Shown: positions 495 through 18,828 of the stretch, one piece after another | Layout of the letters: each line of letters begins with the position of its first letter | Position numbering within the stretch: the first letter of the stretch is position 1 | Assembly: GCA_002305475.1 (NCBI GenBank) | Contig: DBRB01000015.1 | Span: forward strand, 72,987 to 136,986 | Direction of reading: 5' to 3' | DNA: 64,000 nt | Source: a candidate division WWE3 bacterium UBA1379 | GTDB lineage: Bacteria; Patescibacteriota; WWE3; UBA101185; UBA10185 | The notes under the pieces: generated by a model | What the model was told of the DNA's origin: nothing | The model's database searches: none | What the model saw: only the letters and a program-made list of their open reading frames with translations | Program-made: the position numbers and the translations under genes

Positions 495-2570
495 ATGAAT
501 AAACATACCCCAAAACTAGATTTGAAGATACTTGATATTATTCTATTACTAATCTGTTATATCAGTATTTTCTCAATCGTTCTGTTAGTAATCGGGGTAT
601 TTAAGCCGTTATATGTCCTCATACTTTCGTTTATATTGTTATTTTCCACTTTGAAGGTATTCAATATACACATTATTATCCATGACGATCGTTTAGGTTG
701 GAAAATAGCCTTTATTTTAATAATCGCATTAGTACTTAGATTAAAACCGTATCTGTATGTAATGGGCGGTCAGGACCAGGGGACTTATGTAAATATGTCA
801 CGCCAGTTTGAATTGCAGGGGAGTTTATATACTACAGATCATTTTCGTAATACATTAACTGATGAACAAAAAGAAATGTATGATGTACATGGAAAATATT
901 TAATGCCGGAATTCCAGGAATGGGATCATCAAAAATCCGCACAGATTATGAAACTTTATCCCATGCATCCAGCCTGGATGGCAATATTCTCATTCCTGTT
1001 GGGAGCAGATAACCGGGTTTATTCATTAACATTCTTTTCTCTTTTATCCATTTTAGGATTTTTTTTAGTTGCTCTGGCTATTACCCGTAAAAAAGGTGTT
1101 GCTGTTTTAGTAGCCATGTTTTTGACTATTAGTCCTATCCATGTGTTTTTTGCTAAATTCCCTGTGACGGAAACTGTTGCCTTGGCATTTACATCATTTG
1201 GTATTTACTATCTTATTTCATATATTCGAGGTACAGACACGGAGGTACAGGCACCCTGGAAGTTAATACTTTCAGTACTATTGTTCAATGCATTTTTCTA
1301 TACCCGACTTAGTTCTTTTATGTATATTCCCTTATTTTTAGGTACCGGTTTTCTGTTTTCCATAGTAATAAAAGATACAGTTGTAAAACGAAATCTCAAG
1401 TACTATGTGGCGTCAGTATTAATACTCGTTCTTATATCATACATTGTCCATTTCAAGTTTTTATACCCGCTGTTTTATGAAATTTACTTGGGTTATTTAA
1501 AACAATTTTTAGGAGAGTATTCTACCCGAAAAATTATCGGTGTTTTCGGATTGCTGATAATTTTAAGTTTCTTGTTTGACATTGTTGCGAAAAAGAAGGT
1601 TGTTCAGAAAATGGTGGCAACTTTACATAAATATTTATGGGTGTTTTATCTCTGCTTTTTGATAGTATTAGCATTTACTACCTATAGGCAATATAATATG
1701 TTGGTTTACTCCGATGATTATGTACTTTCTAATCTTTTTTATAGATGGGAAGTTGCCGGGCAAGGATTGGATTCACTCAGACATATTACCTTATACGGTA
1801 TAATCACACATTTATCACCGTTTGGTTTTATTCTGTTAATCATTGCTTCATTTTATGAATTATTTAAAAAGAAAAAGGATATTTACATAAATTCATTTAT
1901 TGTTTATGTATGGTACTTTATAGCCTTAAATTCCTATTTTACCTTTATTTTCATCTATAACTATTATAGTTCACGATATTTTTTGAGCGAAATAGTTCCT
2001 TTTGCATATCTGATTATTGCAGTATTTTTAACAAAAATTTGGGGAAAACATAAGATTGTTACGACTCTGCTTGCCTGCGGAATTCTTCTTTATAATATGT
2101 ATTTCCTACCTCTTCCGGTATTAGAAAATGAAATGCCTAATTTGGATTTTTATGAAAAAATTCAGGAGAAAGTGAAAAGTGATTCCTTACTCCTGGTGAA
2201 TAAAAACTTCCGTTTTGGTAATGCAGCAGTTTCCCCTCTTAAGTATTATTACGATTATGACGTTTTCCCCTTTTATTACAATGAAGATATTAATACAAAG
2301 GAAATTGAGGAACTATCAAAAAAGTATAATCATGTATATTTACTGACGGCAACAGATGATAAGATGTATGCTTATACTCCAAATAAAGATACATTAAGAT
2401 TCAGATACGATTATTTTAATACACCAGGTGGTTGCACACAGCATTCATATTCATACCTTCCTATAGAAAAATCTGTAAAACTCCCGTTTTCTGATTATAT
2501 CGGTTGCTGGTTCCTCCCCAGTGTGAAATATACTGGGTATTCAGACCTGTATTTATATACGCTGAAATAG
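495..2570 (+). CDS. Large polytopic membrane protein, GT-C-like fold suspected (N-terminal multi-TM region plus C-terminal soluble domain)
   Basis: 691 aa with about 12 hydrophobic helices and a hydrophilic YY/FY-rich C-terminal domain. The architecture resembles the other large membrane proteins in this island at 10393, 24008 and 25767. Confidence 0.4.
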   Translation: MNKHTPKLDLKILDIILLLICYISIFSIVLLVIGVFKPLYVLILSFILLFSTLKVFNIHIIIHDDRLGWKIAFILIIALVLRLKPYLYVMGGQDQGTYVNMSRQFELQGSLYTTDHFRNTLTDEQKEMYDVHGKYLMPEFQEWDHQKSAQIMKLYPMHPAWMAIFSFLLGADNRVYSLTFFSLLSILGFFLVALAITRKKGVAVLVAMFLTISPIHVFFAKFPVTETVALAFTSFGIYYLISYIRGTDTEVQAPWKLILSVLLFNAFFYTRLSSFMYIPLFLGTGFLFSIVIKDTVVKRNLKYYVASVLILVLISYIVHFKFLYPLFYEIYLGYLKQFLGEYSTRKIIGVFGLLIILSFLFDIVAKKKVVQKMVATLHKYLWVFYLCFLIVLAFTTYRQYNMLVYSDDYVLSNLFYRWEVAGQGLDSLRHITLYGIITHLSPFGFILLIIASFYELFKKKKDIYINSFIVYVWYFIALNSYFTFIFIYNYYSSRYFLSEIVPFAYLIIAVFLTKIWGKHKIVTTLLACGILLYNMYFLPLPVLENEMPNLDFYEKIQEKVKSDSLLLVNKNFRFGNAAVSPLKYYYDYDVFPFYYNEDINTKEIEELSKKYNHVYLLTATDDKMYAYTPNKDTLRFRYDYFNTPGGCTQHSYSYLPIEKSVKLPFSDYIGCWFLPSVKYTGYSDLYLYTLK

Positions 2571-2603: not shown

Positions 2604-2843
2604 ATGAATAACGAAGATAAGCTTAAAGAAATATTTTCCTCATCTCTTGGTATTAAATTGGATGATATTAAAGAAAACCTGAAATATCATTCCATTCCTC
2701 AATGGGATTCTATTGCACATATGACTTTAGTAGCAGCTATTGATGACGCATTCGGTACTATGTTAGATACTGATGATGTTATTAACCTAAGTTCATTTGA
2801 TAAAGCTAAGGAGATTCTAAAAAAGTATGGAGTCGACTTTTAA
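2604..2843 (+). CDS. Acyl (peptidyl) carrier protein
   Basis: 79 aa, acidic. A WDSIAHM motif sits at the position of the phosphopantetheine-attachment Ser (DSL/DSI) of ACPs. It is directly followed by an SDR, an adenylating enzyme and AcpS. Confidence 0.65.
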   Translation: MNNEDKLKEIFSSSLGIKLDDIKENLKYHSIPQWDSIAHMTLVAAIDDAFGTMLDTDDVINLSSFDKAKEILKKYGVDF

Positions 2844-3585
2844 CCTATTAAAGGGAAAAACTGCCATTATTACTGGTTGTGCCAGCGGTATTGGATTAAG
2901 TACTATGGAATTATTTGCAACATGCGGTGCTGATGTTATGTCAATCGGTATTACAAAGGGAAGTCTTGATGAAGTATCGGCACGACTATCAAAAGAACAT
3001 TCAGTTTCGGTAATTCCCTACTACTTTGATATTTCTTCATATGACTCAGTAAAAAATTTCTATAGTATGTTAGTTAAGGAAAACAGGAAAGTAGATATTC
3101 TGATAAACAATGCAGGAATTTTAAGGGATGCTCTTATTCCTATGATTACTGAAGAGATACTGAAAAAGACTTATGAAGTTAACGTATTCGGATCCATTTT
3201 CATGATGCAGTATGCATCCAGAATGATGATGAGACAAAAGTCGGGAAGTATAGTAAATATTTCTTCCATTATCGGAACTCATGGAAACGAAGGGCAGGTA
3301 GTTTATGCAGGTAGTAAAGCGGCTTTAATCGGTGTGACAAAATCAGCTTCCAAAGAATTGGCAGGATATAATATCCGGGTAAATGCCATTGCTCCGGGAT
3401 TTATTGATACAAAAATGTCCCGTTCTATCCCTGAGGAGAAGTTTAATGAACGTCTCACCCAGATAAAAATGGGTCGGATCGGATCACCGGTAGATGTTGC
3501 TCAATGTGCATTATTCCTTTCCTCTGATCTATCATCTTATATCACCGGTGAAGTAATCGGGGTGGACGGTGAAATGATTATATGA
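2827..3585 (+). CDS. SDR-family oxidoreductase, 3-oxoacyl-ACP reductase (FabG)-like
   Basis: TGCASGIGLS glycine-rich NAD(P)-binding motif, NAG, and the YAGSKAA catalytic Y-x3-K. 252 aa. Confidence 0.8.
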   Translation: MESTFNLLKGKTAIITGCASGIGLSTMELFATCGADVMSIGITKGSLDEVSARLSKEHSVSVIPYYFDISSYDSVKNFYSMLVKENRKVDILINNAGILRDALIPMITEEILKKTYEVNVFGSIFMMQYASRMMMRQKSGSIVNISSIIGTHGNEGQVVYAGSKAALIGVTKSASKELAGYNIRVNAIAPGFIDTKMSRSIPEEKFNERLTQIKMGRIGSPVDVAQCALFLSSDLSSYITGEVIGVDGEMII

Positions 3586-4964
3586 GTTTCTTTCATACTT
3601 TAGATAAATTCAGTAATAATACTGCTCTTGTTGATTCTTTTGGAAATCAGTATTTATACAAGGATTTAATAGAGCTTTCTGATTCTTTTGCATCTAATCT
3701 TAAAAGCGGAAAAAAGAATCTGGTATTAATTCTTTGCAGAAATAATATTGAAACCATAAAGGCATATTTAGGTACAATTCGTTCAGGAAATACGGCATGG
3801 CTCTTAACTGTGGATATTGATCCAACACTAAAGGAAAATCTAATAAACTGCTACCGGCCTGATTATATCTGGCAGCCGGGTCCGGATAACAATGATTATG
3901 TATTGACGGAATATAATATAGAGAGAGATTTTGAGATATATAAGGACTTAAGTCTGTTATTAACTACTTCTGGTAGTACGGGTAGTCCTAAGCTGGTTCG
4001 GCTGACGCAGAAGAATCTGAATAGCAATGCACAAGCTATTGCGCAATATCTACAGCTTGATTCGTCGGAAAAACCTATTACTACTCTGCCACATCATTAT
4101 ACGTATGGCCTTTCTGTTCTAAACAGTCATTTAACAGTTGGAGCTCAGGTACTTCTTACTGAGGATTCTATAGTAACCTCGGAATTTTGGGATTTTTTTA
4201 AACGGGAAGGAGCTACTTCGTTTGCCGGTGTCCCTTATACTTATGAAACTTTAAAGAAGCTAAATTTTTTTAATATGGATCTTCCCAGTTTGAGATACTT
4301 CACACAGGCAGGAGGTAAGCTTCATCCTGATCTGGTAAAAGAGTATGCTGAGTTTTCACACAAAAAAGGAATAAAATTTTACGTTATGTATGGTCAGACA
4401 GAAGCAACCGCCCGGATCTCCTATCTGCCACCCGAGCATAACATTGAAAAGTATGCCAGTATGGGGATAGCTATCCCTGGTGGAACCCTAAGTGTACTTG
4501 ATGATGAGGGGAAAGATATTAAAGAACCGTTTGTAGATGGGGAACTTTGTTATGAAGGAGAGAATGTCATGCTTGGTTATGCAACTGAAGAAAAAGAGTT
4601 GGCGGAAGGGGATAAAATGCAGGGAAGATTGTTAACCGGAGATATTGCTCATTATGATGAGGATGGGTATTTCTATATCACAGGCAGAAAGAAGAGATTT
4701 CTAAAAATATATGGACAGAGGACAAATTTGGATGAGCTGGAAGGATCGTTAAAAAGATTAGGGATTGAGTGTGCCTGCGGTGGAAAGGATGACCTTTTAA
4801 TGATTGCCTGTATTGATTCTTCTCGCAACGAGGAAATAAAGGATCTATTAGTGGAAAAATATCATTTTTTTCATAAATCTTTTAAAATCGTCAATGTAGA
4901 TAAAATTGAGAGAAATGAGTCGGGAAAAGTACAATATGAGTCAGTATTTAAAAACTATCTTTGA
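3582..4964 (+). CDS. AMP-binding (adenylate-forming) acyl ligase
   Basis: TSGSTGSPK (A3), YGQTEAT (A5), TGDIAHYDEDGYFYITGRKK (A7/A8) motifs. The start overlaps the upstream stop (ATGA). Confidence 0.8.
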   Translation: MSFFHTLDKFSNNTALVDSFGNQYLYKDLIELSDSFASNLKSGKKNLVLILCRNNIETIKAYLGTIRSGNTAWLLTVDIDPTLKENLINCYRPDYIWQPGPDNNDYVLTEYNIERDFEIYKDLSLLLTTSGSTGSPKLVRLTQKNLNSNAQAIAQYLQLDSSEKPITTLPHHYTYGLSVLNSHLTVGAQVLLTEDSIVTSEFWDFFKREGATSFAGVPYTYETLKKLNFFNMDLPSLRYFTQAGGKLHPDLVKEYAEFSHKKGIKFYVMYGQTEATARISYLPPEHNIEKYASMGIAIPGGTLSVLDDEGKDIKEPFVDGELCYEGENVMLGYATEEKELAEGDKMQGRLLTGDIAHYDEDGYFYITGRKKRFLKIYGQRTNLDELEGSLKRLGIECACGGKDDLLMIACIDSSRNEEIKDLLVEKYHFFHKSFKIVNVDKIERNESGKVQYESVFKNYL

Positions 4965-6057
4965 TAAAAAACCCTATGAAATCGCAACCAACGAAAAAGA
5001 TGACCTATTACTTAGGGAGATGAATGAACTTCATGAGTTTCATTCAAAAAACTGCAAAGAATACAAAAGCATTTGCCGTGCTTTAGGTATTAGTGAGGGC
5101 GAGTTTAATAGCCTTAAGGAATTTCCCATGTTACCCGTATCCATTTTTAAAGAACTTGATATAAAAAGTATTAAAGATGAAGATGTGGTGAGAATTCTTT
5201 ACTCTTCGGGAACTACTTCTATGAAGAAATCAAAAATATATCTTGATGCTATGACTTCTGCCAATCAGACCAAAGCACTAACAACCATAGTGAATGACTT
5301 TATCGGAAAGAACAGAATACCCATGATTATAGTGGATTCCAGATCCACCATTACAAACAAAAACAATTTTTCAGCCAGAGCGGCTGGTATAGTAGGTATG
5401 CTTACCTTCGGTAAAGATTACTTTTACTTATTAAAGGATGACGATACTTTGGATATTACAGGACTGGAGGTGTTTTTAGATAAATACGGCAGTCAACCAA
5501 TTATTATCTTCGGATTTACTTTTATGGTTTGGAAGTATCTTTATCAGGAACTGATAAAAACGAAAAATAGCCAGGTTAAAATAAATTTAAAGGATAAATT
5601 AAATAATGCTGTTTTAATACATAGCGGGGGCTGGAAAAAACTACTGAATGAAAAAGTTGATAACATAACTTTCAAGAATATATTAAAAGAAGAATTAGGG
5701 ATCAAAAAAGTTCATAACTTCTATGGAATGGTAGAGCAGGTAGGTTCTGTATTTATGGAATGTGAAGAAGGTTATTTTCATACCTCGAATTTTTCAGAAG
5801 TTCTCATTCGAAATCACCTTGATTGGTCTGTAGAGGAAAATGGTAAAGAGGGAATTATTGAAGTAATTTCCGTTCTTCCGCAAAGTTATCCAGGAAATGT
5901 TTTATTAACAGAAGACATTGGGGTAATTCATGGAGTGGATGATTGTAAGTGTAAAAGAATGGGTAAGTACTTTACGGTTAAAGGCAGAGTCGAAAAAGCG
6001 GAAGTAAGAGGATGCAGTGATACATATGAACTGAAGGAGGTTCAGAACTATGTTTGA
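4936..6057 (+). CDS. LuxE-like acyl-protein synthetase family protein
   Basis: About 373 aa with an SSGTTS motif and a size typical of LuxE (PF04443-like). An alternative start at 4906 gives 383 aa, as in the ORF track. Confidence 0.5.
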   Translation: MSQYLKTIFDKKPYEIATNEKDDLLLREMNELHEFHSKNCKEYKSICRALGISEGEFNSLKEFPMLPVSIFKELDIKSIKDEDVVRILYSSGTTSMKKSKIYLDAMTSANQTKALTTIVNDFIGKNRIPMIIVDSRSTITNKNNFSARAAGIVGMLTFGKDYFYLLKDDDTLDITGLEVFLDKYGSQPIIIFGFTFMVWKYLYQELIKTKNSQVKINLKDKLNNAVLIHSGGWKKLLNEKVDNITFKNILKEELGIKKVHNFYGMVEQVGSVFMECEEGYFHTSNFSEVLIRNHLDWSVEENGKEGIIEVISVLPQSYPGNVLLTEDIGVIHGVDDCKCKRMGKYFTVKGRVEKAEVRGCSDTYELKEVQNYV

Positions 6058-7261
6058 TATTTTATGCCCGAAAAATGGAACATATGAAGATGTCTTAAAA
6101 TCAGAAAATTTTCTTCCGTACGGTTCCGCTGTGGTGGATTTTTTTCAGCAACTTTCTAAAAATATTCTTCAGAATAGTAATTATAAGAAATATCCGGAGA
6201 TTATTGCCTTAGGTTTCTGGTTACGAAAAGCCAATCTTATTAAGATGCAAAAGGACGTGTTTGAAAAAGAAACCACAAAGGACAATATAAAATTAGCAAG
6301 AGGTCTGGTCTTTCATATTGCACCGTCGAATGTAGACACTGTTTTTGCTTACTCTCTTTTTGTATCACTTCTGATGGGAAATAGAAATATCGTAAGGGTA
6401 TCAAGTCAAAGTTCTTTGGTTTTGGATTTACTTATAACTGAACTTAATGACATTCTATCATTAAAGGAATTCAAATCCCTAAGAAATAATTTGTTGATTG
6501 TCAGGTATGAACATAATGATGATACAACCACGGAATTTTCTTTGAGGTGTGATGTTAGGGTGATCTGGGGAGGGGACCAGACGGTAAATAAAATTAGATC
6601 TCTACCTTTGAATACTTCGGCACATGAGATTGTTTTTCCTGATCGGTTTTCTTACTGTGCAGTAAAGTCGAAAGAGTTTCTGAGTTTAAATCATCCTTTT
6701 GAACTAACGGATAAATTTTATAAGGATGTTTATACCTTTGATCAGAATGCATGTTCATCACCTAGGATGATATTCTGGATAGGTAGTTCTGAGGATAACC
6801 AAAAAGCTCAGGAAAAATTCTGGAGTTGTTTTAATGAAGTTGTAGAAAGTTACAGCGGGATACTGGAGCAGGATCATTCCTTACGAAAGCTAAATTCCAC
6901 AATTATTACGGCTGTAACAACAGAGGGAAAAGTTAAGATTATAAACGGATCCACTAACCGTATTACAAGAGTTCAATTTGATTCATTAAAGGATGTTCGA
7001 AGAGATGACCACTGTGGACTGGGATTATTTTATGAGGTGTGTATCAAAGATTTAAATGAACTTTCTTCTTTTTTCAGTTCAAAAGATCAAACCTTGAGTG
7101 TTTACGGGTTTTCAAATCAGGAGATATCTGATTGTCTTAATAAAGGTTGTAGGAGTATTTCCAGAGTAGTACCAATCGGAAAAGCTTTAGAATTTGATGT
7201 GGTATGGGACGGATATAATTTATTTGATGAGCTGACTAGAGAAGTCAGTATTGTTTCTTAA
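6050..7261 (+). CDS. LuxC-like acyl-CoA (acyl-protein) reductase family protein
   Basis: 403 aa. The N-terminal region (FLPYGSAVVDFF...FHIAPSNVDTVFAYSLF) resembles the LuxC fatty-acyl reductase family. It is translationally coupled to the LuxE-like gene. Confidence 0.5.
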   Translation: MFDILCPKNGTYEDVLKSENFLPYGSAVVDFFQQLSKNILQNSNYKKYPEIIALGFWLRKANLIKMQKDVFEKETTKDNIKLARGLVFHIAPSNVDTVFAYSLFVSLLMGNRNIVRVSSQSSLVLDLLITELNDILSLKEFKSLRNNLLIVRYEHNDDTTTEFSLRCDVRVIWGGDQTVNKIRSLPLNTSAHEIVFPDRFSYCAVKSKEFLSLNHPFELTDKFYKDVYTFDQNACSSPRMIFWIGSSEDNQKAQEKFWSCFNEVVESYSGILEQDHSLRKLNSTIITAVTTEGKVKIINGSTNRITRVQFDSLKDVRRDDHCGLGLFYEVCIKDLNELSSFFSSKDQTLSVYGFSNQEISDCLNKGCRSISRVVPIGKALEFDVVWDGYNLFDELTREVSIVS

Positions 7262-7262
7262 T

Positions 7263-7634
7263 ATGTGTATTCAGGGAGTAGGTATTGATATCGCAGAGAT
7301 AGAAAGATTCAAGGATAAAAGTGATTCTTTTTTCCGTAAAGTATTTACCGATAACGAAATAGAATACTGTCTGCAGAAAGGAGAACCAGCTCAGCACTTT
7401 TCTTCAAGATTTTCCGCAAAGGAAGCTGTTATTAAAGCTTTAGGATTAATGGGAATCTTTGATATTACCTATAAAGATATTGAGATTATTAATAGTGAAA
7501 ATAAGGTTCCAAGTTGCAGGATATATAAAAACGGTAAGATTACAGATGAATTTAATGTTAAAATCTCTATGTCTCATGCTCGGGGTTATGCAGCTGCAGT
7601 GGCCCTGATCAGTGAAAATTGCAAACAAGAATGA
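7263..7634 (+). CDS. acpS: Holo-ACP synthase (4'-phosphopantetheinyl transferase, AcpS type)
   Basis: GVGIDIAEIERF...FTDNEIEYC...RFSAKEAVIKALG is canonical AcpS. The ATG at 7263 is preferred over the TTG at 7251 used by the ORF track. Confidence 0.8.
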   Translation: MCIQGVGIDIAEIERFKDKSDSFFRKVFTDNEIEYCLQKGEPAQHFSSRFSAKEAVIKALGLMGIFDITYKDIEIINSENKVPSCRIYKNGKITDEFNVKISMSHARGYAAAVALISENCKQE

Positions 7635-7642
7635 TATAATAT

Positions 7643-8653
7643 ATGGCAGTCCCAATATTAAAATTAGCAACAATAGGCATTCTTCCTTCTCCAATAAAAA
7701 AGATGTACTACAAATCAAGAGGGGCAAAAATCGGTAAGAACGTTAATTTAGGTATTTTGTCAGTTATTGACTGTAAAAACCTAGAAATTGATGACGGAGT
7801 GAAAATGGGAATGATGACTTTTATCTGTGCCAAAAATGTGAAGCTTGGAAAACGGGCTCAGATAAAGATGATGTCGGCTGTGGATACCGGGGATCTGGAG
7901 ATGGCTGAAGATTCCATAATAATGGAGCAGGTTACTATCGGAGGAATGCTAACTCCCAGATCAAAACTCTATATGGGAAAAAGAGTCAGAATCTTTCCTT
8001 TCAGTTTTATTAATACTACTGAACCGGTAATTATTGAAGATGATTCAGGCGTAGGTGGGGGTAGTTATATCTTCACTCACGGTTCCTGGTTGTCTGTATT
8101 AGAAGGTTATCCGGCAACTTTCGGTCCGGTAAAAATTGAGAAAAATGTCTGGCTTCCCTGGAGAGTATTTATTATGCCCAATGTAACAATAGGTGAAGGT
8201 TCCGTAATCGGAGCAGGATCTGTAGTGACTGCGGACATACCTGAAAAATCCTTAGCATCCGGTTCTCCTGCTAAAGTTATTTTGGATAAGGGGAAATTTT
8301 TAAGAGTTCCAAACGAGGAGAAGAAGTTTGAGATAGTAAAAAAAATCATTAAAGAATTTACTGAATTTCAGGATTATCAAGGAATAGATAGTTTTTATCA
8401 GGAAGAAGGGGATAAGGTAACCTTTGGAATTAAATACAAAGATAGAGATTATCAAGGATTGTTGATTAAAGAAGTTACAGAAGATGTTGGTAGTTGCAAC
8501 GTCTTGATATCCATGCACTCTATTTCTGAACCGCCAACAGCATATTGGTTTGATCTTGAAAACAAGAAAGCAAAGCTTCCTTCAAATTATTTTTCCAAGG
8601 AAATAAATTCATTTTTTAGTCACTACGGAATAAGATTTGATTTTATTGACTAA
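7643..8653 (+). CDS. Hexapeptide-repeat (left-handed beta-helix) acyl/acetyltransferase with a C-terminal extension
   Basis: Repeated [LIV]-G-x-x-x-x hexads (IGKNVNLGILSVID..., VTIGEGSVIGAGSVV). 336 aa. Candidate N-acyltransferase in the WbpD/RfbO role. Confidence 0.6.
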   Translation: MAVPILKLATIGILPSPIKKMYYKSRGAKIGKNVNLGILSVIDCKNLEIDDGVKMGMMTFICAKNVKLGKRAQIKMMSAVDTGDLEMAEDSIIMEQVTIGGMLTPRSKLYMGKRVRIFPFSFINTTEPVIIEDDSGVGGGSYIFTHGSWLSVLEGYPATFGPVKIEKNVWLPWRVFIMPNVTIGEGSVIGAGSVVTADIPEKSLASGSPAKVILDKGKFLRVPNEEKKFEIVKKIIKEFTEFQDYQGIDSFYQEEGDKVTFGIKYKDRDYQGLLIKEVTEDVGSCNVLISMHSISEPPTAYWFDLENKKAKLPSNYFSKEINSFFSHYGIRFDFID

Positions 8654-8667
8654 AAAGTATCTTTATA

Positions 8668-9759
8668 TTACTTTTGAAGTCTTTCGTTATCCATCATATC
8701 CATCCACATAGCAAACAGAAGGGATTGAAATCCTGTGATGGTAAGAAACATAAAAGCCATAGTACTCTTGTCTGATAAGTATGCACCGATCAGAAAAGAT
8801 TCTATGACTCTCACAAAGAATATTGTATCGATAAGAAGTAGAATAAAACCTAAATGATATAAGAGAAATAACGGGTGAAAGTCGCGGATGAAATATTTTG
8901 TATAAAGACGTTTCCAAAACAGTTTAAACAGTAGCCAGGAAATTTTATGAATCACTTTGGCAATTTTCATTTTGGAATGTTCGCCTACATTATAAACAGG
9001 TTTGCTTGGGATTTCTTTGATTGTGCAATTGGCAATATTTAACTTAACTAAAATATCATTTGGGCATCCGTAGTAAGGATAGATATCAAATATCTTCATT
9101 AATTTTAAACATTTCAGATTTACTGCCGTATAGCTAGTCTGAGTATCGGATACTCTCCAGTAACCGCTGGCAATTTTTGTTAATAAAGATAAAACAGAAT
9201 TTCCGAATAACCTGACTGGCGGAATAACTACACTGGCTGCCGGATGGGTTAATCTGTTAATTTTGGTGGAATCAACCTCTCCGTTTATTACCGGCATACA
9301 CACATCTTCAAGTTCGGAAGGGTCCATTTGTCCATCTCCATCCATGATTGCAGTACAGTCAATATTATGATCACGACACCATTTGTATCCTGAAGCATAC
9401 GCTCTTCCCACATAACCATTGCTTAAGTGTTTAATTAGAACAACTCTGGAAGTAGGGCTTGATATGATTTCACTGGGTACATATTTGCAGTTTTCTTTTT
9501 CTTCTAACTCCTGGGCAATAATATCTGCATGATTGTATTTTGTCTGAGTAATTTTTTCCTTGCTGTCTTTTAAAGGGGTTACTTCCCTATGTTCTTTTTT
9601 AATGAAATCTTCAACTATTTGTGCTGTTTTATCCGTGGAGTAATCATCGATGATAACAATCCTGTCTACAAAATCAGGCATGGTTTCGATAACAAAGCCT
9701 ATTTGAGTTTCTTCATTATGACATGGAGCAACTACAGCAACAGTTTTCCCTTTAAGCAT
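8668..9759 (-). CDS. GT2 glycosyltransferase with C-terminal TM helices (polyprenyl-phosphate sugar transferase-like)
   Basis: VAVVAPCHNEE...IVIIDDYSTD (DxD region) with C-terminal hydrophobic helices. Confidence 0.7.
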   Translation of the reverse strand: MLKGKTVAVVAPCHNEETQIGFVIETMPDFVDRIVIIDDYSTDKTAQIVEDFIKKEHREVTPLKDSKEKITQTKYNHADIIAQELEEKENCKYVPSEIISSPTSRVVLIKHLSNGYVGRAYASGYKWCRDHNIDCTAIMDGDGQMDPSELEDVCMPVINGEVDSTKINRLTHPAASVVIPPVRLFGNSVLSLLTKIASGYWRVSDTQTSYTAVNLKCLKLMKIFDIYPYYGCPNDILVKLNIANCTIKEIPSKPVYNVGEHSKMKIAKVIHKISWLLFKLFWKRLYTKYFIRDFHPLFLLYHLGFILLLIDTIFFVRVIESFLIGAYLSDKSTMAFMFLTITGFQSLLFAMWMDMMDNERLQK

Positions 9760-9824
9760 TAGACAAATATAATATGGAGAAGACTACGTAGTCAAATATT
9801 TGCATCCTGTGTTTGTAAGAATTA

Positions 9825-10400
9825 TTATTGAATCTTTTCGCAAATTACTAACATTGATTGTTGCCATGCCAAGAGTTTTTGAATGATATTATAGTTTGGT
9901 TTATTGCCGGGATAGTATATTAATTTGGTTATTCTGAATCCTGAAACAGTTAGTATCCGTTCTAATGTAAATTTATCATGCCATAAAGTATGTGTAGGAT
10001 TGGGTTTCAAAAAAACAGTCGGCCATTTTGCATTAGGGGTGGTTAACACAAAGATTCCTTTATCGGATAAATGATTGTGAATATTTCTTAAAAACAATTC
10101 CTGGTTTGCCACATGTTCGATTACATCTCCCGCTATGATGACGTCAAATGTTTGATTAAATTTATATGTTTCCATATTGCCCCAGTGTATTCTTTCATCA
10201 TCGGGTAAGTTTTCTGTTTCCAATTTAAAGGTCCTTGTTGTTGAGTCAACTATGTTTGGAAGATCAATTCCGGTTAAAGACTTGCAATTAGTTTTTGACA
10301 GTTGGTTCCATAGACTATATGCTTCTGTCTGGCCGATGCTTCCGATATCCAGGACATCCTTGTTTTCAACTAGTTTTTCGATAATGTGTTCTCTAATCAT
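9825..10400 (-). CDS. Class I SAM-dependent methyltransferase
   Basis: VLDIGSIGQ (motif I), DVIIAGDVIEHV and the FVLTTPN post-I/II motifs. 191 aa. Confidence 0.65.
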   Translation of the reverse strand: MIREHIIEKLVENKDVLDIGSIGQTEAYSLWNQLSKTNCKSLTGIDLPNIVDSTTRTFKLETENLPDDERIHWGNMETYKFNQTFDVIIAGDVIEHVANQELFLRNIHNHLSDKGIFVLTTPNAKWPTVFLKPNPTHTLWHDKFTLERILTVSGFRITKLIYYPGNKPNYNIIQKLLAWQQSMLVICEKIQ

Positions 10401-12288
10401 ATGGTATTGGATATTTTGTAATCACAATATTATTCACCTTAGTTACATGAGGTTCAATACTTACAGGTAATGTTTTTATATAACTAAGCATTTCATCCTG
10501 AGCACCCGTGACATCTCTATAAGAATAGAAGAAGCTGCTTGGAATATCGGAGCTTATCAGTACAATATTTTTAACTCCATTTTTCTTTAAATCTTCATAA
10601 GTAGGCATAGAGAAATATCTAAGGTGCGTATAAATTTTTTGTGTCCCTAAGGTCTTTCCCATATATTTTTTCGGTATTCTAGGATCAAGTTTCCATGCCC
10701 ATTCTTGTTCCATGTAAGTATCATTAATATAGAAACCTATAAGTTCTTCCAATCCTGCAGTATAGTTCATAAGCACCGGAAATTCTCCTATAGCTTGGGC
10801 AATCTTTTCTGCATTGTAATTTCGTCCGTAAACCATTGTGCTTGCAATTTGTCCTTGAAGACTTAAGCTGAAGTACACAGCAATGCTTGGAAAAAAAGTG
10901 CATATCGATAATAAAAGAATAAAAATTCCTTGAGCATATTTTATCCGGATTAATATCCAAATCGGAGACAGAAACTGGTTTATGATATTGGGAAAAAGAA
11001 TTGCGAATAAACCCATTAAAAGAATGATATTAAGTCCTATTTTTATCATTAAATATCCTTCCTCGAATAAAAGACTCAGAATGACCATAATCGAAGTAAT
11101 AGTCAGAACAGATATTTTAAATCTGAAACTCATTCTCTCTTCATTTGTCAGATATAAATAAAATATGAATACAAAAGGCGCGATAGGAAATAGGTATCTT
11201 CCGTGTCCGCTCATTAACATAAATACCAATAGGTATGTCCAAAAAATCACTGAAAGGAAAGATAATTGGAATTCCTTTTCTTTTAACCAACGTCGGAACA
11301 TAAATATTGATGAAAAAAATGAAGGCACAATGATACCAAGTGGTATAGACGTGTAGCCAAAATTTCTCGGATATAATGTTTTTCCGAAATACAGGAGAAT
11401 AATGTTAACAGATTTTAGTATCAACCCTTTCGGGGAATTATCCTCTCTATCCACATAAAAAGTGGGGATTTTTCTTGAGTTTATTCCCATAAAGTTTCTG
11501 GTTGAAGAGTACGGATTAAAATTTCCCGTCAATGTATCGGCATGAATATCTTCTTCAGTCATTAAGAAAATATGTGCGTGGTAGATATTCAAAGGTATTA
11601 AACCGGTATACATCATTAGAATTAATGCAGCCAATGCCGGTGTGAAATTGAAAAGAAGAGTGGTGGTCATGTCTTTTAAAGTGTTAAGTGGTTTTATTCT
11701 AAGCCAGTTGGATGCTATTAATTTCGTAATAACAAACCAGATAAAATACCCTAATGCAATACTGTAATAAACATGTTCTTTTGCATCGAACATGAACAGG
11801 AATATTAATCCTACAACGATAGGAGTTTTCTTTCTGATAATTGCGTGAATGAGAAGAAGAACTGTAAATAGAACAGGAATTTCTCTTAAATAAGTAAAAT
11901 AGTTAAGAACAAAATGATAGGAAGATACAAGCAATAAAGTACCGAAGAAGGCTAATTTTTCCATTTTTAAATCTTCTTTTAGTATTTTGTAAAACAAAAC
12001 AAGAGATAATATTCCGAATATATAGGTTGAAATTGTAGCTACCGCAACCGAAGGCCCGGTAAAAATATAAAATATGGCAACCGGTACTTTTGACAGCACT
12101 CCGTGCAGGCTGACTCCATAATTTCCCGGCCATATACCTTTTTTAATTAACTCGGAAAGAAGTACCGTTTCCCGAAGATAATATGTTTCGTCACTGATTG
12201 GAGTTCGGAAAAACAGCATTACAAATGAAACTATCACCAATATTCCTATCAGATAACTTAATTCTGAATTATTTTTCAGATAGTGCAT
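10393..12288 (-). CDS. GT-C-fold glycosyltransferase-like polytopic membrane protein (ArnT/PMT-like)
   Basis: 631 aa, multi-TM. The first-loop ISDETYYLRE resembles the DE-x-RY acceptor-loop motif of the ArnT/PMT family. A C-terminal soluble domain is present. Confidence 0.45.
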   Translation of the reverse strand: MHYLKNNSELSYLIGILVIVSFVMLFFRTPISDETYYLRETVLLSELIKKGIWPGNYGVSLHGVLSKVPVAIFYIFTGPSVAVATISTYIFGILSLVLFYKILKEDLKMEKLAFFGTLLLVSSYHFVLNYFTYLREIPVLFTVLLLIHAIIRKKTPIVVGLIFLFMFDAKEHVYYSIALGYFIWFVITKLIASNWLRIKPLNTLKDMTTTLLFNFTPALAALILMMYTGLIPLNIYHAHIFLMTEEDIHADTLTGNFNPYSSTRNFMGINSRKIPTFYVDREDNSPKGLILKSVNIILLYFGKTLYPRNFGYTSIPLGIIVPSFFSSIFMFRRWLKEKEFQLSFLSVIFWTYLLVFMLMSGHGRYLFPIAPFVFIFYLYLTNEERMSFRFKISVLTITSIMVILSLLFEEGYLMIKIGLNIILLMGLFAILFPNIINQFLSPIWILIRIKYAQGIFILLLSICTFFPSIAVYFSLSLQGQIASTMVYGRNYNAEKIAQAIGEFPVLMNYTAGLEELIGFYINDTYMEQEWAWKLDPRIPKKYMGKTLGTQKIYTHLRYFSMPTYEDLKKNGVKNIVLISSDIPSSFFYSYRDVTGAQDEMLSYIKTLPVSIEPHVTKVNNIVITKYPIPYD

Positions 12289-13502
12289 ATTATCCTTTGG
12301 TATTTTTCTGAAACTTTATTTATATCAAATTCTTCTTTTGCATAAATAATACTATCTTGTTTTATCTCCTGTAATTTATTGCTTGCTTTTAAGTCCATAA
12401 GGTATGTGATTTTGTCTGCCAGTTCATCTACATTTCCTTTTGAAAACGTAAATATACACTTATCTGTCTGGTCCGTATCATTAAATTGGGGCAGATCAGA
12501 AACCAGAACTGGGCATCCGCAGCTTAAAGCTTCCATCATCACAACTGGCCAGCCTTCACTGTAGGAAGGAAGTACCAGAAAATCAGAGACCGCCAGATAC
12601 TTGGGAAGATTATTATTTGGGACTAACCCCAAAAATCTCACATTATTAGTTATACAAAGATTTTCACATTTTTTTTGTGCAGTTTCTCTGAGTTGACCTT
12701 CGCCGGCAACAAAAAGGATGGTATCAGGATATTTTTCCAATACTTTTGGCATGCTATTAATAAGATCAAGGATACCTTTAGCCTGAATAATTGAGCCTAC
12801 AAAAATAATGATATTGCTATTCAGACTAAGATCCAGGGATTCTTTTAGATCTTCAATATTGTTTACCGGTTTAAAAACACTTCTGTCTACACCCATTGGA
12901 CATACCTCCACTAGTGCTTTATCGTGGAGTTTTAATATTTTCTTTTTAAGATAAGAATTTACAGTTGATACATAATTGCAATTTTTAAGAATTAATCTGT
13001 CCAGATACTCGAAAAAAGCCAGAGTTAATCTGTTTAAATCACTGCCGTGTATGGTAAGAATGACATTAACATTGGGATTAAAAATTTTTTTAAAAATGAT
13101 CGTACTTAATCCGGAAGGATAAAGCCAGTGTGGATTAATTACATCTATATGGTTTTCTTTAGTAAGTTTCTTTATGGCAAATATTTGAGAGATGAAAACT
13201 AAGGGGAGTATGGCAAATAAATAAGGTTTTTTTTGCAGGTTAGGAAGAATTCCGTCCCCATAGAATAAACCAAAATCCCCAAAAGGTGTAATGGGATTTC
13301 TATATACTTCTATTCCATCCCAATTTTCAATCTTTGCTAATCCCTTACTGTGAGGAGTAAGAACTAATACCCTATTATATTTAATCAACCCTTCAGCTAG
13401 TTTCATCACAAATCCGCCCATCATCTCATCTTTTTTATTAGATGCAGGAAAAGATGAAGTAATAATTAATACAGTTTTTCTATTTGATTTGGTATATGAC
13501 AT
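12276..13502 (-). CDS. GT4-family glycosyltransferase
   Basis: FVGSIIQAKG...SYSEGWPVVMMEALSCGCPVLVSD (E-x7-E motif region). Confidence 0.75.
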   Translation of the reverse strand: MSYTKSNRKTVLIITSSFPASNKKDEMMGGFVMKLAEGLIKYNRVLVLTPHSKGLAKIENWDGIEVYRNPITPFGDFGLFYGDGILPNLQKKPYLFAILPLVFISQIFAIKKLTKENHIDVINPHWLYPSGLSTIIFKKIFNPNVNVILTIHGSDLNRLTLAFFEYLDRLILKNCNYVSTVNSYLKKKILKLHDKALVEVCPMGVDRSVFKPVNNIEDLKESLDLSLNSNIIIFVGSIIQAKGILDLINSMPKVLEKYPDTILFVAGEGQLRETAQKKCENLCITNNVRFLGLVPNNNLPKYLAVSDFLVLPSYSEGWPVVMMEALSCGCPVLVSDLPQFNDTDQTDKCIFTFSKGNVDELADKITYLMDLKASNKLQEIKQDSIIYAKEEFDINKVSEKYQRIICTI

Positions 13503-14637
13503 AATCTCCCGCCGTATAAATTATATCTGTTCTTCTGCGGAGAAACTCAACCATTTTATTATTATAAGCATCATATTTTGTATTATGAAGAATATATTTT
13601 ATATTTATTCCCGGTGTTGGTGTTTTATCTATAGTATCGGAGTCAGGATTCATGACCACAATTTTGTTATTTTCCCAATAACATGTAACAGCACCCATCC
13701 AGTTGCCGAACCAACAGTATAATCCAGGTTTATCCGTATAGTAGTAAAACTCGGATAAGTTATTTACCACGAACCATTCATGAGAATTTGATGGCATATT
13801 ATTAATAAAGTCAAATATTGTCTTAGTCGGGTGATCCTTTAACTGTGATTCCTTGTCTTTATTTTCAGTGCTAATATTACCGGTTAAATAATTGTTATTT
13901 TCCTTATTAAGTACAATGAATGCTTTAAAAGAGTTTATCAGTACAAGAATTAAAATACTGACAAGGATTATAGATTTATATTTACGGATAAATACATTAG
14001 AAGTAATTTCATTTATAAGGTAAAAAATCAAGGCAAGAGTAATTGGTTGATTAGTCATTTGGTAGCGATAGTTATAGGGGTCTTTGAAAATCAGTATAAC
14101 TGAAACAATATAATATAGGAAAAACGCGATTTCCCATCTTTTACGTTTCCTGATTGTAACAATCCCATACAAGAGGAGAGGAATGGCTAACCAGTTCAGG
14201 TTACCTAAAAGTTTAAATCGGAAAAACTGACCCAAATTACCATTGAAAAACATTTTTCCATCTGTCTCTACATCTCTGTCTGTGCTGCTTAGGTCTGAGT
14301 AATACCCAAGTGATATTAAATTATCTTTAATCAGGATTTTTTGTTCCTCACTAACATTCGGATCGATATAAAGGTATTCCGGGTGCATAGGGTCCGGGTG
14401 GTAGTATTTTTTCAAAAGAGATATTTGCTGTTTAAATGCAGCATTATTTGGTGATTCTTCTGTTAAAGCGGAAACAGCAATATATTCTGGCAAGCTTAGT
14501 TCAGAGACATCTGTATTATTAATTATTGAATACACGTTAAATACAACAAGGTATGCTAAAAAAATGCATCCGATGATTGATATTCCGGTAATTACTTTAA
14601 ACTTTCCTGTATTAATTTCCATTGCAGTTTGAGCCAT
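13480..14637 (-). CDS. Membrane protein of unknown function
   Basis: 385 aa, with an N-terminal TM, a central soluble region and additional C-terminal TM helices. Gene overlaps couple it into an operon. Confidence 0.35.
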   Translation of the reverse strand: MAQTAMEINTGKFKVITGISIIGCIFLAYLVVFNVYSIINNTDVSELSLPEYIAVSALTEESPNNAAFKQQISLLKKYYHPDPMHPEYLYIDPNVSEEQKILIKDNLISLGYYSDLSSTDRDVETDGKMFFNGNLGQFFRFKLLGNLNWLAIPLLLYGIVTIRKRKRWEIAFFLYYIVSVILIFKDPYNYRYQMTNQPITLALIFYLINEITSNVFIRKYKSIILVSILILVLINSFKAFIVLNKENNNYLTGNISTENKDKESQLKDHPTKTIFDFINNMPSNSHEWFVVNNLSEFYYYTDKPGLYCWFGNWMGAVTCYWENNKIVVMNPDSDTIDKTPTPGINIKYILHNTKYDAYNNKMVEFLRRRTDIIYTAGDYVIYQIK

Positions 14638-15722
14638 GTGACCCAGACATCTCCAAAGAGGATATCAAATAAATAATGAACTGCTCCAAACACTAATATC
14701 AATATTCCGATGATTAAAAGATTAATGATTTTGTTTTTAATACTTTCTCTAGAAAACAACCCATAAAGAATAAATAATATTCCGGCTAAGGCAAAACCCA
14801 AAGAATGGGCATTTGCCATAAATCCCCCCGATATTCCGAAAAGTAGTACCAATAGTCTATTTGGTTTCTCAATTACCTGTAGAAGAAGACTTAGTGTTAT
14901 AACTAGGAAGGCTATCCTGTAAGTATCTAAGTGATAGTATAGTAATGAGGCACCGAAGGCTGGTGTGAGAACCAGAGCTGTAGCTGCAATAAAAGCAATT
15001 ACTTTATCTTTTTTCATTAACCAGTACAGCAGTTCCAGCACAATAATGATCCAGTACCACCCTGTTACACTGCGAAAGTAGTAATCTCCCTGACTACTGG
15101 TGATATCATTCCAGAATCTTTCCCAGGTCCCAAAAATTGGAAAGTTCATCCCGTGAAGACCAACAAAGTAGAATCCGGTCGTTGGATCAAACCTTTGATT
15201 TGAATAGTTAATCTGTTTTCGTTCAGATAATACCTTACCCCATGTCCCATATTCAAAGGTATCGTGTCTTATAATCGGAATTTTAACTACGATAATTTGC
15301 CAGGCAAGGAAAAATATTGTTAAAGCAGAAGCGATAAAGAGAAAAATTTTTGGTTCGGTCTTTTTCTTTTCCTGAAGGAAAGTTAGGGTACTATCCCTTA
15401 GTTTATGCAAATTTTTTCTTCCGATTATCAAAAGATAAGTAAACACAGCAAACACAACGGAAACATAAAAAAGAGATGATTGTTTAGGTATTAAGATAAG
15501 AAGGTAGTAAATAAGCAGACTACAGATAGAAGGAGCTATTGCTGCTGAGATTAGATAAAGTTGGGGTAAACTTAAGACTTTTTTCTTATCTAATGTATAT
15601 ATAAACAAAGCCACAATTCCCGTAAAAAGAACATTAATGATATACAGCAGTATTAGATATGATAGGAAGTTATAAAACATATATTTACTTTGGATTATAG
15701 AGCTTGGGTTGACTGTTAACAA
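14592..15722 (-). CDS. Polytopic membrane protein of unknown function (possible polymerase or GT-C-like)
   Basis: 376 aa with about 10 TM helices. An alternative start at 15680 removes the overlap with the upstream gene. Confidence 0.35.
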   Translation of the reverse strand: MLTVNPSSIIQSKYMFYNFLSYLILLYIINVLFTGIVALFIYTLDKKKVLSLPQLYLISAAIAPSICSLLIYYLLILIPKQSSLFYVSVVFAVFTYLLIIGRKNLHKLRDSTLTFLQEKKKTEPKIFLFIASALTIFFLAWQIIVVKIPIIRHDTFEYGTWGKVLSERKQINYSNQRFDPTTGFYFVGLHGMNFPIFGTWERFWNDITSSQGDYYFRSVTGWYWIIIVLELLYWLMKKDKVIAFIAATALVLTPAFGASLLYYHLDTYRIAFLVITLSLLLQVIEKPNRLLVLLFGISGGFMANAHSLGFALAGILFILYGLFSRESIKNKIINLLIIGILILVFGAVHYLFDILFGDVWVTWLKLQWKLIQESLK

Positions 15723-17808: not shown

Positions 17809-18828
17809 ATGTCGCTTAACTTTGCATTAATCGGAGCAGGTGGATACATAGCTCCAAGACATCTTAAAGCAATTAAAGAAACGGGAAATAATTTGGTAGC
17901 TGCTGTTGATAAAAATGATTCAGTCGGTATTCTGGACAGCCATTTCCCTGAAGTTGAATTTTTTACTGATTTTGAAGCATTTGAAAAATTCGCTTGTAAA
18001 CTTAAGAGAAGCAATCCGGAAAAAGCAATTAATTATGTCAGTATTTGTACCCCCAACTATTTACATGAGGATCATATAATCTCTGCCTTAAGGCTTGGAG
18101 CTAATGTGATTTGTGAAAAACCCTTAGTATTAAACACAGAAAGCTTGGATAACCTTCAGGCAACAGAAATGGAACTGGGTATGGGTAAGGTAAATACTGT
18201 ATTGCAGCTTAGACTTCACCCCGTTCTCCAGCAGCTGAAAGATAGGATTAATAATGAAACCAGGGACCATCCTTATGATATAGATCTTACTTATATAACT
18301 CCGCGTGGAAAGTGGTATTACATCTCCTGGAAAGGGGATTCAAAAAAATCCGGCGGGGTGATGATGAATATTGGTATTCACTTTTTTGATATGCTTACAT
18401 GGATTTTCGGAGGTGTGAAAAGCCAGGCAACTTATTGTTTGAATGATACAAAAGCTTCAGGACACCTTGAACTGGAAAAAGCCAGAGTGCGCTGGTACCT
18501 GTCACTGGACAGAAATGATCTTCCAGAAACGTACAGGCAGAATAATAAAGCATACAGATCCATTACTATTGATGGAGAAGAATTATCTTTTACCGACGGA
18601 TTTACCGATTTACATACTGAGATATACAAAAAAGCCATCGCCGGTGATGGCTTTGGTATGGAATATGCCAGGCCATCCATAGAACTGGTGGAAATGATCA
18701 GAAACTCTTCTATTGCACCAATAAATTCAAAACTTGCTCATCCTATAATTCTAGGAAATCACTTTTCTTCACAGAAACAGGAAATTCCTGCCGCTGTCCC
18801 TATAGACGCTAAAGTTGAAGAAAAATAA
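17809..18828 (+). CDS. Gfo/Idh/MocA-family NAD-dependent sugar-nucleotide oxidoreductase (WbpB/GnnA-like 3-dehydrogenase)
   Basis: N-terminal Rossmann fold (ALIGAGGYIAPRHLKAI) and the EKPL motif in VICEKPLVL. It is followed 2 nt downstream by a DegT aminotransferase. Confidence 0.8.
   Translation: MSLNFALIGAGGYIAPRHLKAIKETGNNLVAAVDKNDSVGILDSHFPEVEFFTDFEAFEKFACKLKRSNPEKAINYVSICTPNYLHEDHIISALRLGANVICEKPLVLNTESLDNLQATEMELGMGKVNTVLQLRLHPVLQQLKDRINNETRDHPYDIDLTYITPRGKWYYISWKGDSKKSGGVMMNIGIHFFDMLTWIFGGVKSQATYCLNDTKASGHLELEKARVRWYLSLDRNDLPETYRQNNKAYRSITIDGEELSFTDGFTDLHTEIYKKAIAGDGFGMEYARPSIELVEMIRNSSIAPINSKLAHPIILGNHFSSQKQEIPAAVPIDAKVEEK

Follow-up and report, generated by a model that had tools for sequence, protein, structure and literature searches.

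A seven-gene cassette at positions 2604-8653 of a 64,000-nucleotide (nt) stretch of contig DBRB01000015.1 is analysed here; "the window" denotes this whole stretch. The cassette is embedded in a glycan island. Five of its genes code for a small carrier protein, a short-chain dehydrogenase/reductase (SDR), an adenylate-forming ligase and homologues of LuxE and LuxC. They represent a core which is widespread, already described and biochemically uncharacterised, and the window contains a further member which is equipped with a private AcpS. We consider it somewhat probable that the open reading frames (ORFs) 2604-7634 specify a self-sufficient, carrier-dependent pathway which supplies a short, partly reduced (hydroxylated) acyl group for a surface glycan.

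All seven ORFs are on the forward strand. They are found where a first-pass annotation, made from the letters alone, had placed them, and the same genes appear in independent gene calls on the same contig of the public assembly. The families named at that time stand: all seven ORFs score above the Pfam gathering score and the catalytic residues are conserved. Scores are judged against Pfam gathering scores and NCBIfam cut-offs. Protein lengths are in amino acids (aa).

2604-2843, forward strand: small acyl carrier protein, 79 aa (PF00550 PP-binding, 23.2 bits, cut-off 20.8)
2827-3585, forward strand: FabG-like classical SDR (adh_short_C2, 195.6 bits)
3582-4964, forward strand: short adenylate-forming ligase, 460 aa (PF00501 AMP-binding, 157.7 bits)
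4936-6057, forward strand: LuxE-family acyl-protein synthetase, 373 aa (PF04443, 193.9 bits, cut-off 24.9)
6050-7261, forward strand: LuxC-family thioester reductase, 403 aa (PF05893, 96.4 bits, cut-off 21)
7263-7634, forward strand: AcpS-type 4'-phosphopantetheinyl transferase (PF01648 ACPS, 68.8 bits)
7643-8653, forward strand: hexapeptide (left-handed beta-helix) acyltransferase, 336 aa (Hexapep, 45 bits)

The consecutive junctions measure -17, -4, -29, -8, +1 and +8 nt, i.e., the genes overlap or abut on one strand. Translational coupling, which had been stated as a fact, is what we infer from these overlaps. The GC content of the cassette (0.34-0.36) matches that of its flanks (0.33-0.35), which speaks against a recent foreign insert. 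A promoter scan returned 41 sites against 44.4 in shuffled sequence and a terminator scan 7 sites against 6.5, i.e., no excess in either case, and an Rfam search of the whole window had no match. Of seven proteins looked up, five from the cassette plus enolase and aspartyl-tRNA synthetase (AspRS), all are singletons when clustered at 90% identity.

A profile search had been suggested as a check, and it places ORFs 4936-6057 and 6050-7261 in the LuxE and LuxC families, respectively. The 373 aa of the LuxE homologue are counted from an ATG, with an alternative TTG start at 4906, and the PF04443 match spans residues 14-373. It aligns with LuxE from Photobacterium phosphoreum (PDB 7xc6_E) at an E-value of 9e-17. 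In the latter enzyme K238 and R355 form the adenylation Lys/Arg pair and C364 is acylated (PMC9157457). The equivalents K234, R351 and C360 are invariant in 16 homologues. The Pfam match of the LuxC homologue is limited to residues 78-252, and the single sequence finds no match in the PDB even at E 10. A profile built from 29 homologues hits LuxC (7xc6_A) with E 1e-10 over positions 76-393. C235, which is invariant and resides in a Q-x-A-C-S-S-P motif, aligns with the acylation cysteine of LuxC (DQQAC).

The other core proteins carry signature residues as well. In the carrier protein the motif Y..WDS..HM holds the phosphopantetheine serine, Ser36, to which attention had been drawn before. All 70 homologous carrier proteins compared have Y28, W34, S36 and H39, and 99% have D35 and M40. 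Against the AcpP equivalogs TIGR00517 and PRK00982 the protein scores 16.7-23.6 bits, below cut-offs of 66-106. The translated SDR displays TGxxxGIG, NNAG and YxxxK; its best FabG equivalog score is 240.2 bits, with 296 demanded by NF004198. By these features it is a classical SDR which resembles FabG and is not assignable to FabG. In the ligase the A3 (TSGSTGSPK), A5 (YGQTE) and A8 (GRKKRF) motifs reported previously are read in translation, plus A10 (SGK). Its best solved relatives are oxalyl-CoA synthetases at 103 bits. Finally, the phosphopantetheinyl transferase passes the cut-offs of TIGR00516 (acpS domain, 72.5 bits, cut-off 59.8) and TIGR00556 (87.9 bits, cut-off 45.35), which confirms it as AcpS-type.

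How frequent is this core? In a scan of one genome per species, with loci found through LuxE, it is present in at least 589 species-level genomes from many phyla, i.e., Bacillota, Bacteroidota, Proteobacteria, Campylobacterota, Cyanobacteria, Spirochaetes, Chloroflexota, Nitrospirota and others. Database relatives of the LuxE homologue at E <= 0.001 exceed 6,000, and the best are about 50-54% identical to it. We examined the best 80 of these loci, 67 of which have enough flanking sequence to be evaluable. Of these 67, 66 contain the ligase, at least 63 LuxC, 62 the carrier protein and 59 the SDR; the exact order carrier protein-SDR-ligase-LuxE-LuxC, as seen in the window, prevails in 28. The core usually has genes for aminosugars or nonulosonic acids as neighbours. 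A DegT-type aminotransferase is located within 10 kb in 41 of the 67. NeuB occurs in 24 and a PseB-like gene in 19 of the 80 loci. Other genes which flank the core encode PglD-type hexapeptide and GNAT transferases, CMP-sugar synthetases, thioesterases and a thiamine-dependent E1-like pair.

The core has been noticed by others. Five genes, orf1-orf2-orf3-luxE-luxC, belong to the group II islands for flagellin glycosylation in 98 strains of Aeromonas (PMC7874193), and they are listed as well for about 71-80 strains of Enterobacteriaceae (PMC4875605). In both papers they go under the name of 'fatty acid synthesis' genes, with a role which is unknown. The window has the same five gene families, and a flagellin island of Lysinibacillus has the same five genes in the same order among Maf, NeuB and PseC-like genes. 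Thus, the first-pass view that the cassette is an unusual way to tailor a glycan fails, given its occurrence in at least 589 species and in described flagellin islands. There are differences, however. Genes for pseudaminic or legionaminic acid and for flagellin go with the flagellin islands, whereas homologues of NeuB, PseB, CMP-synthetase, Maf and flagellin were not found in the window. The flagellin islands carry no AcpS. Further, unlike in these islands, the window set is surrounded by glycosyltransferase genes of the GT-C, GT4 and GT2 families in a Patescibacteria genome.

In three loci LuxE and LuxC are fused (L041, 9965-12322; L045, 9944-12535; L074, 9875-12580), resembling RfbN of Vibrio cholerae, and in L021 a single open frame (7832-12328) joins ligase, LuxE and LuxC. 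Therefore, the three enzymes act on one substrate. A ketosynthase is absent from the window ORFs scanned, and ketosynthase families are not among the 25 most frequent families of the two genes flanking the core in related loci. A FabA-type dehydratase adjoins the core in 2 of 75 loci only. Chain elongation is therefore unlikely. Two adenylating enzymes, a carrier protein, a thioester reductase and a carbonyl reductase, without elongation, are best accommodated by a dicarboxylic acid. A carrier-bound, partly reduced short acyl chain, as suggested at the outset, remains the best reading.

The pathway might proceed as follows. AcpS would convert the 79-aa carrier protein into its holo form at Ser36. 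The substrate of the AMP-forming ligase would be a small acid, most likely a dicarboxylate of C3-C5 like malate; after adenylating it, the ligase would load one carboxyl group onto the carrier protein. The LuxE homologue would adenylate the other carboxyl group and transfer it to its own C-terminal Cys360 and from there to Cys235 of the LuxC homologue, which would reduce the thioester to an aldehyde. The FabG-like SDR would then turn the aldehyde into an alcohol. From malate a tetronate-like dihydroxybutanoyl group, C4H6O3, would be expected, tetronate being its 2,4-isomer. An acyltransferase, for which the hexapeptide protein is the only candidate seen, would place the acyl group on a sugar, most likely a 3-amino sugar provided by WbpB-like and WbpE-like enzymes encoded 9 kb away. 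One may speculate that this sugar perhaps travels via an ArnC-like GT2 enzyme, polyprenyl phosphate and the GT-C-like protein encoded upstream to the outside of the membrane, as in the Arn pathway.

The closest precedent is the tetronate gene set of V. cholerae O1, VC0248-VC0252 (rfbK-L-M-N-O, wbeK-O). The pathway was proposed by Morona et al. 1995, as cited in PMC4772473. Compared by gene roles, both sets comprise a ligase, LuxE/LuxC-type domains, an enzyme to reduce the aldehyde and an acetyltransferase, and both reside in a glycan locus with an aminosugar pathway. RfbK is reportedly a carrier protein in that proposal. The parallel drawn in the first-pass annotation holds at this level: by family, all roles of the tetronate cassette are filled in the window, with the provisos that the reductase is an SDR and no iron alcohol dehydrogenase, that LuxE and LuxC are not fused and that the family of the hexapeptide protein is usually cassette-free. 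The V. cholerae product is N-tetronyl-perosamine, i.e., a reduced C4 hydroxy acid, 3-deoxy-L-glycero-tetronyl (2,4-dihydroxybutanoyl), amide-linked to a sugar amine. In this species the 825-aa RfbN combines LuxE and LuxC in one protein, whereas the window has separate genes. No dedicated AcpS is listed for VC0248-VC0252 in the literature consulted, whereas the window has one. The acceptor in V. cholerae is GDP-perosamine, a 4-amino sugar, whereas in the window a WbpB/WbpE-type 3-amino pathway is nearby. No Vibrio is represented among the best 80 of the at least 589 LuxE loci.

Two further observations bear on the nature of the acid. In four Clostridia loci an Ldh-family gene follows directly 3' of LuxC (L019, 12271-13275; L032, 12226-13311; L051, 12324-13280; L079, 12280-13302). 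The encoded proteins have an Arg at the Gln102 position in a motif AG-R-x-R-K/R. From the engineering of lactate and malate dehydrogenases, Arg in place of Gln102 is a mark of malate over lactate specificity. This hints that malate or oxaloacetate feeds the pathway. The second observation concerns Aeromonas piscicola AH-3, a strain with the cassette, whose flagellin carries a 376.14-Da pseudaminic acid derivative and an unknown terminal moiety of 102 Da (PMC7874193); the paper does not link these masses to a C4H6O3 acyl group. By calculation, replacement of one acetyl of Pse5Ac7Ac (316.127 Da) by C4H6O3 yields 376.148 Da, and C4H6O3 itself amounts to 102.032 Da, a match which would fit any C4H6O3 isomer, the reported 102-Da value being nominal. 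Together, the oxalyl-CoA-synthetase relatives of the ligase, its sub-threshold NCBIfam matches to malonyl-CoA synthase, PimA and AmcH, the malate dehydrogenase-type neighbours and the Aeromonas masses are consistent with a C4 dicarboxylate; they are not decisive.

The private AcpS merits a comment with respect to the host. All named best matches of the AspRS encoded in the window are from Woesebacteria, Daviesbacteria, Microgenomates or Patescibacteria. Because of these relatives the host is, on sequence grounds, a bacterium of the Patescibacteria or candidate phyla radiation (CPR), Microgenomates-type. CPR bacteria are reported to be incapable of membrane-lipid synthesis; Nealsonbacteria, with near-complete lipid pathways, are an exception, yet are without acyl carrier protein (ACP) synthase (PMC7242380). 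If membrane lipids are not made in this group, the presence of a private AcpS in the cassette would be understandable. Elsewhere this gene is an uncommon companion, beside the cassette in 3 of 67 evaluable loci (L060, L069, L073); it is also part of the cassette of L084.

Besides the ambiguity of the glycan masses, several points weigh against the proposed pathway. No member of the cassette has been characterised biochemically, so that every step beyond family assignment is deduced. The similarities of the ligase stay below the cut-offs of all families, the NCBIfam matches including malonyl-CoA synthase, PimA, DltA and the 2-oxoglutaryl-ACP ligase AmcH, and appear weakly discriminating. Malate dehydrogenase-like neighbours exist in just 4 of 62 loci, all from Clostridia. 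V. cholerae employs an iron alcohol dehydrogenase where the window has an SDR. The lack of fatty-acid synthesis in the host is an assumption from reports on the group, the genome being seen over 64 kb only. Moreover, AcpS-bearing cassettes include Chloroflexota and Gastranaerophilales genomes. These hosts presumably own a housekeeping AcpS, and missing lipid synthesis in a CPR host is thus not the sole reason for an AcpS in the cassette. The putative acceptor module is 9 kb distant from the cassette, with genes on the opposite strand between them. Lastly, the solved proteins closest in sequence to the hexapeptide protein are galactoside and maltose O-acetyltransferases, which use acetyl-CoA, and a LuxE/LuxC cassette accompanies the family of the hexapeptide protein in 0 of 30 metagenome loci with sequence on both sides.

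These last two findings require a closer look at the end of the operon. The hexapeptide protein had been called an N-acyltransferase, and neither sequence nor fold allows that call. The AF2 structure model (pLDDT 94.7) predicts a beta-helix, then a long helix and, at the C-terminus, a small alpha/beta domain for which the fold search had no match. In the PDB, the model is matched best by Foldseek (E of about 1e-8 to 1e-6) to acetyltransferases with a beta-helix, some O-acetylating and others N-acetylating. The search separated neither N- from O-acyltransferases nor users of acyl-ACP from users of acyl-CoA. As to its assignment as the cassette's own transferase, the context of the family speaks differently. 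Full-length relatives are 40-54% identical. Among 80 metagenome loci of this 336-aa family, 30 have at least 2.6 kb on both sides and 52 have at least 1.5 kb upstream; LuxC is directly upstream in none of the 52. Since the family usually occurs without the cassette and its closest solved relatives are O-acetyltransferases, the transferase may be this protein or another, and the linkage N or O. We retain the hexapeptide protein as the candidate transferase of the cassette, tentatively and with some doubt.

This opens the way for the alternative which survives best. The genes from ACP to AcpS would operate as proposed, and the hexapeptide protein would be an acetyl-CoA-dependent sugar acetyltransferase which partners a GATase-WbuX-type amidotransferase, e.g., on an acetamidino-sugar route, and merely shares the operon; another enzyme would unload the carrier protein. 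Besides the O-acetyltransferase relatives and the cassette-free loci, the proximity of such an amidotransferase to the hexapeptide family counts in favour: it is encoded within 10 kb in 18 of the 48 loci which are evaluable and within 1.5 kb in 6 of 30, which suggests an acetamidino-type modification. Among the closest relatives the WbuX-like fusion often adjoins the hexapeptide gene (L092-L094, L097-L100, L105). Enzymes of the LpxA/LpxD type, which use acyl-ACP, are absent from the 50 best fold matches. Conversely, LuxC or AcpS immediately precedes the hexapeptide gene in the window, L084 and L089, with gaps of at most 10 nt, although these three are only about 50% identical, and the hexapeptide gene adjoins the cassette in L086 as well. 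It encodes the sole beta-helix transferase detected in the 64-kb window, which has WbpB and WbpE/QdtB homologues but no WbpD-type N-acetyltransferase and in which the WbuX-like gene is 7 kb distant. Further, PglD-type hexapeptide or GNAT transferases flank the core elsewhere, so a soluble partner is normal. On balance we regard an independent acetyltransferase as unlikely, yet as a possibility of some weight.

Much less can be said for a Lux-type fatty-acid reductase which would convert long-chain acids into fatty aldehydes or alcohols, or into the lipid anchor of a 'liposugar'. LuxE and LuxC of luminous bacteria do use myristic acid, and the papers on Aeromonas and Enterobacteriaceae annotate the genes as fatty-acid synthesis and suggest a lipid component. 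The luminous LuxC-LuxE complex (PDB 7xc6) and the window proteins share the Pfam families, the LuxE Lys/Arg pair with the acylated Cys and the LuxC Cys. Yet identity does not exceed about 20%, and the LuxC homologue is shorter by about 75 residues. The scores against the lux-operon equivalogs are far too low, with 79.1 bits for the LuxE homologue (NF052244, cut-off 550) and 36.3 bits for the LuxC homologue (NF052251, cut-off 750). LuxD, LuxA and LuxB have no counterpart in the window, and a carrier protein, a second ligase and an SDR are added. Reduction of a fatty acid needs neither a second adenylating enzyme nor a carrier protein, and elongation enzymes were not found. The only member tied to a known glycan acyl group, that of V. 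cholerae, makes a C4 hydroxy acid; the extra mass of the Aeromonas glycan is 60 and 102 Da, i.e., no fatty chain; and the best relatives of the ligase activate C2-C3 dicarboxylates. The substrate in the window is probably a short polar acid, as opposed to myristate in the luminous system. We judge fatty-acid reduction to be very improbable.

Hardly better is the prospect that the aldehyde generated by LuxC is itself the product, either transaminated to an amino-acyl group by a neighbouring pyridoxal-phosphate enzyme or condensed with a sugar amine, while the SDR reduces a keto group elsewhere. A DegT-type aminotransferase is positioned directly 3' of LuxC in L006, L012, L034 and L077, and the E1-like pair found in 15 of 80 loci indicates that the chemistry varies. 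However, DegT enzymes typically use nucleotide-keto-sugars and are already explained by the sugar pathway, the window operon has no aminotransferase, and V. cholerae has an alcohol dehydrogenase in the place of the SDR. The weakest proposal, a DltA/DltC-like pair of ligase and carrier protein which feeds an amino or hydroxy acid to a membrane protein (that of 691 aa acting as DltB) for esterification of a wall polymer outside the cell, can draw on partial matches of the ligase to DltA models (84-87 bits) and on a conserved membrane-protein gene 33 nt upstream of the carrier gene in the window and L084, and is scarcely credible because the DltA scores are far under the cut-off of 560, no MBOAT (DltB) or DltD family match exists, relatives of the membrane protein match PMT-type GT-C glycosyltransferases and not acyltransferases, and a homologue of it is encoded in none of the 80 other core loci.

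Known assembly systems were considered as well. A fragment of a type II fatty-acid or polyketide synthase was rejected as no ketosynthase, acyltransferase, dehydratase or enoyl reductase was found. A non-ribosomal peptide synthetase is ruled out by the lack of a condensation domain, and a Dlt system proper by the lack of DltB and DltD and the low DltA score.

The surroundings of the cassette fit a glycan island. The principal features outside the operon are as follows.

495-2570, forward strand: membrane protein, 691 aa, predicted to span the membrane about 12-14 times; 33 nt upstream of the carrier-protein gene
15685-17685, reverse strand: glutamine amidotransferase fused to a WbuX/WbpG-like N-acetyl-sugar amidotransferase, 666 aa (TIGR03573, 137.7 bits)
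17809-18828, forward strand: WbpB-like UDP-sugar 3-dehydrogenase (PDB 3oa2, WbpB, E 2.9e-107, 362 bits)
18831-19925, forward strand: sugar 3-aminotransferase, QdtB/WbpE-like (PF01041, 396 bits)
20044-20988, forward strand: PgfS/ArnC-like GT2, polyprenyl-phosphate glycosyltransferase (NF047588 PgfS 238.7 bits, ArnC 120 bits, both below cut-off)

The 691-aa protein has no Pfam match even at E 5 and no profile match in the PDB. It is 32% identical to a 686-aa counterpart in the same position in L084 (2874-4934). Its family numbers 659 representatives when clustered at 50%. PMT_2 is matched by 4 of 36 members, and a GGQDQGxY loop is invariant or nearly so. Probably it represents a divergent GT-C glycosyltransferase family without a model of its own. 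The whole arrangement recurs in L084 (GCA_002305115.1), with GATase-WbuX, membrane protein, carrier protein, SDR, ligase, LuxE, LuxC, AcpS and hexapeptide protein; among the genomes seen it is the only other one with the full set.

The 3-aminosugar module, which had been pointed out in the earlier annotation, is present. The aminotransferase matches QdtB with 329 bits (E 4e-97) and WbpE with 278 bits (E 1e-81). The gene for the amidotransferase fusion is divergent from the WbpB/WbpE-like pair. Its product combines an N-terminal class II glutamine amidotransferase domain (GATase_6/7) with a PP-loop domain (motif SGGRDSS), is 50% identical to the L084 gene product and matches TIGR03573 over residues 308-655, below the cut-off of 203. 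The ensemble recalls the WbpB/WbpE/WbpD/WbpG route of Pseudomonas aeruginosa to 2,3-diacetamido and 3-acetamidino uronic acids, in that WbpB and WbpE/QdtB homologues are encoded beside an amidotransferase of the WbuX/WbpG family. In contrast to that route, the amidotransferase is fused to its own glutamine amidotransferase domain, and a WbpD/WlbB-type 3-N-acetyltransferase and a WbpA-type 6-dehydrogenase were not found in the 64 kb.

The GT2 gene is accompanied by PMT_2-type GT-C genes at 14592-15722 (reverse strand), 25767-27209 and 32044-34953 (both forward strand). In the last of these, 969 aa long, a Wzy_C (O-antigen ligase) domain is fused to a PMT/PMT_2 domain. The GT2 enzyme and several GT-C proteins point to glycosylation outside the membrane from lipid-linked single sugars. 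Four ORFs of the island have no match in Pfam or NCBIfam, 10393-12288 and 13480-14637 on the reverse strand, 24008-25678 and 22272-23192 on the forward strand; for two of them, of 631 and 556 aa, about 13-14 membrane spans are predicted. Other genes of the window encode a penicillin-binding protein, MraW, enolase, many GT-C (PMT_2) proteins and a DUF4012 protein.

The core itself is not uniform. The thiamine-dependent E1/transketolase-like enzyme which is found inside the core in 15 of 80 loci is a split pair (e.g., L006, L018, L034, L061); in L002 (6802-8611) it is placed between SDR and ligase. This suggests a variant with an additional C-C bond-forming step and a different acyl group. Lachnospiraceae-type loci (L006, L038, L040, L041, L052, L068) have two LuxE-LuxC pairs and several SDR genes per cluster, and the reduction module may be used twice.

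The core ranks among the commonest modules without an assigned function in bacterial glycan loci. Two local peculiarities stand out in the window: the cassette of this CPR host has a private AcpS, and a hexapeptide transferase is attached whose relevance is uncertain. This version is clean and self-contained, brings its own AcpS and comes from a lineage which is expected to have no other use for a carrier protein. It is less suited to experiments because cultivable hosts carry the same core. With a defined chemistry, O-antigen, capsule and flagellin-glycan loci could be interpreted better, among them those of pathogens, e.g., Aeromonas, Riemerella and V. cholerae O1. A bolder generalization, which we consider doubtful, assumes that the host is without fatty-acid synthesis, that carrier protein and AcpS exist solely for glycan tailoring, and that the core is a general pathway from dicarboxylates to hydroxy-acyl groups which turns malate into a tetronate-like C4H6O3 group. 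[quoted passage not shown]

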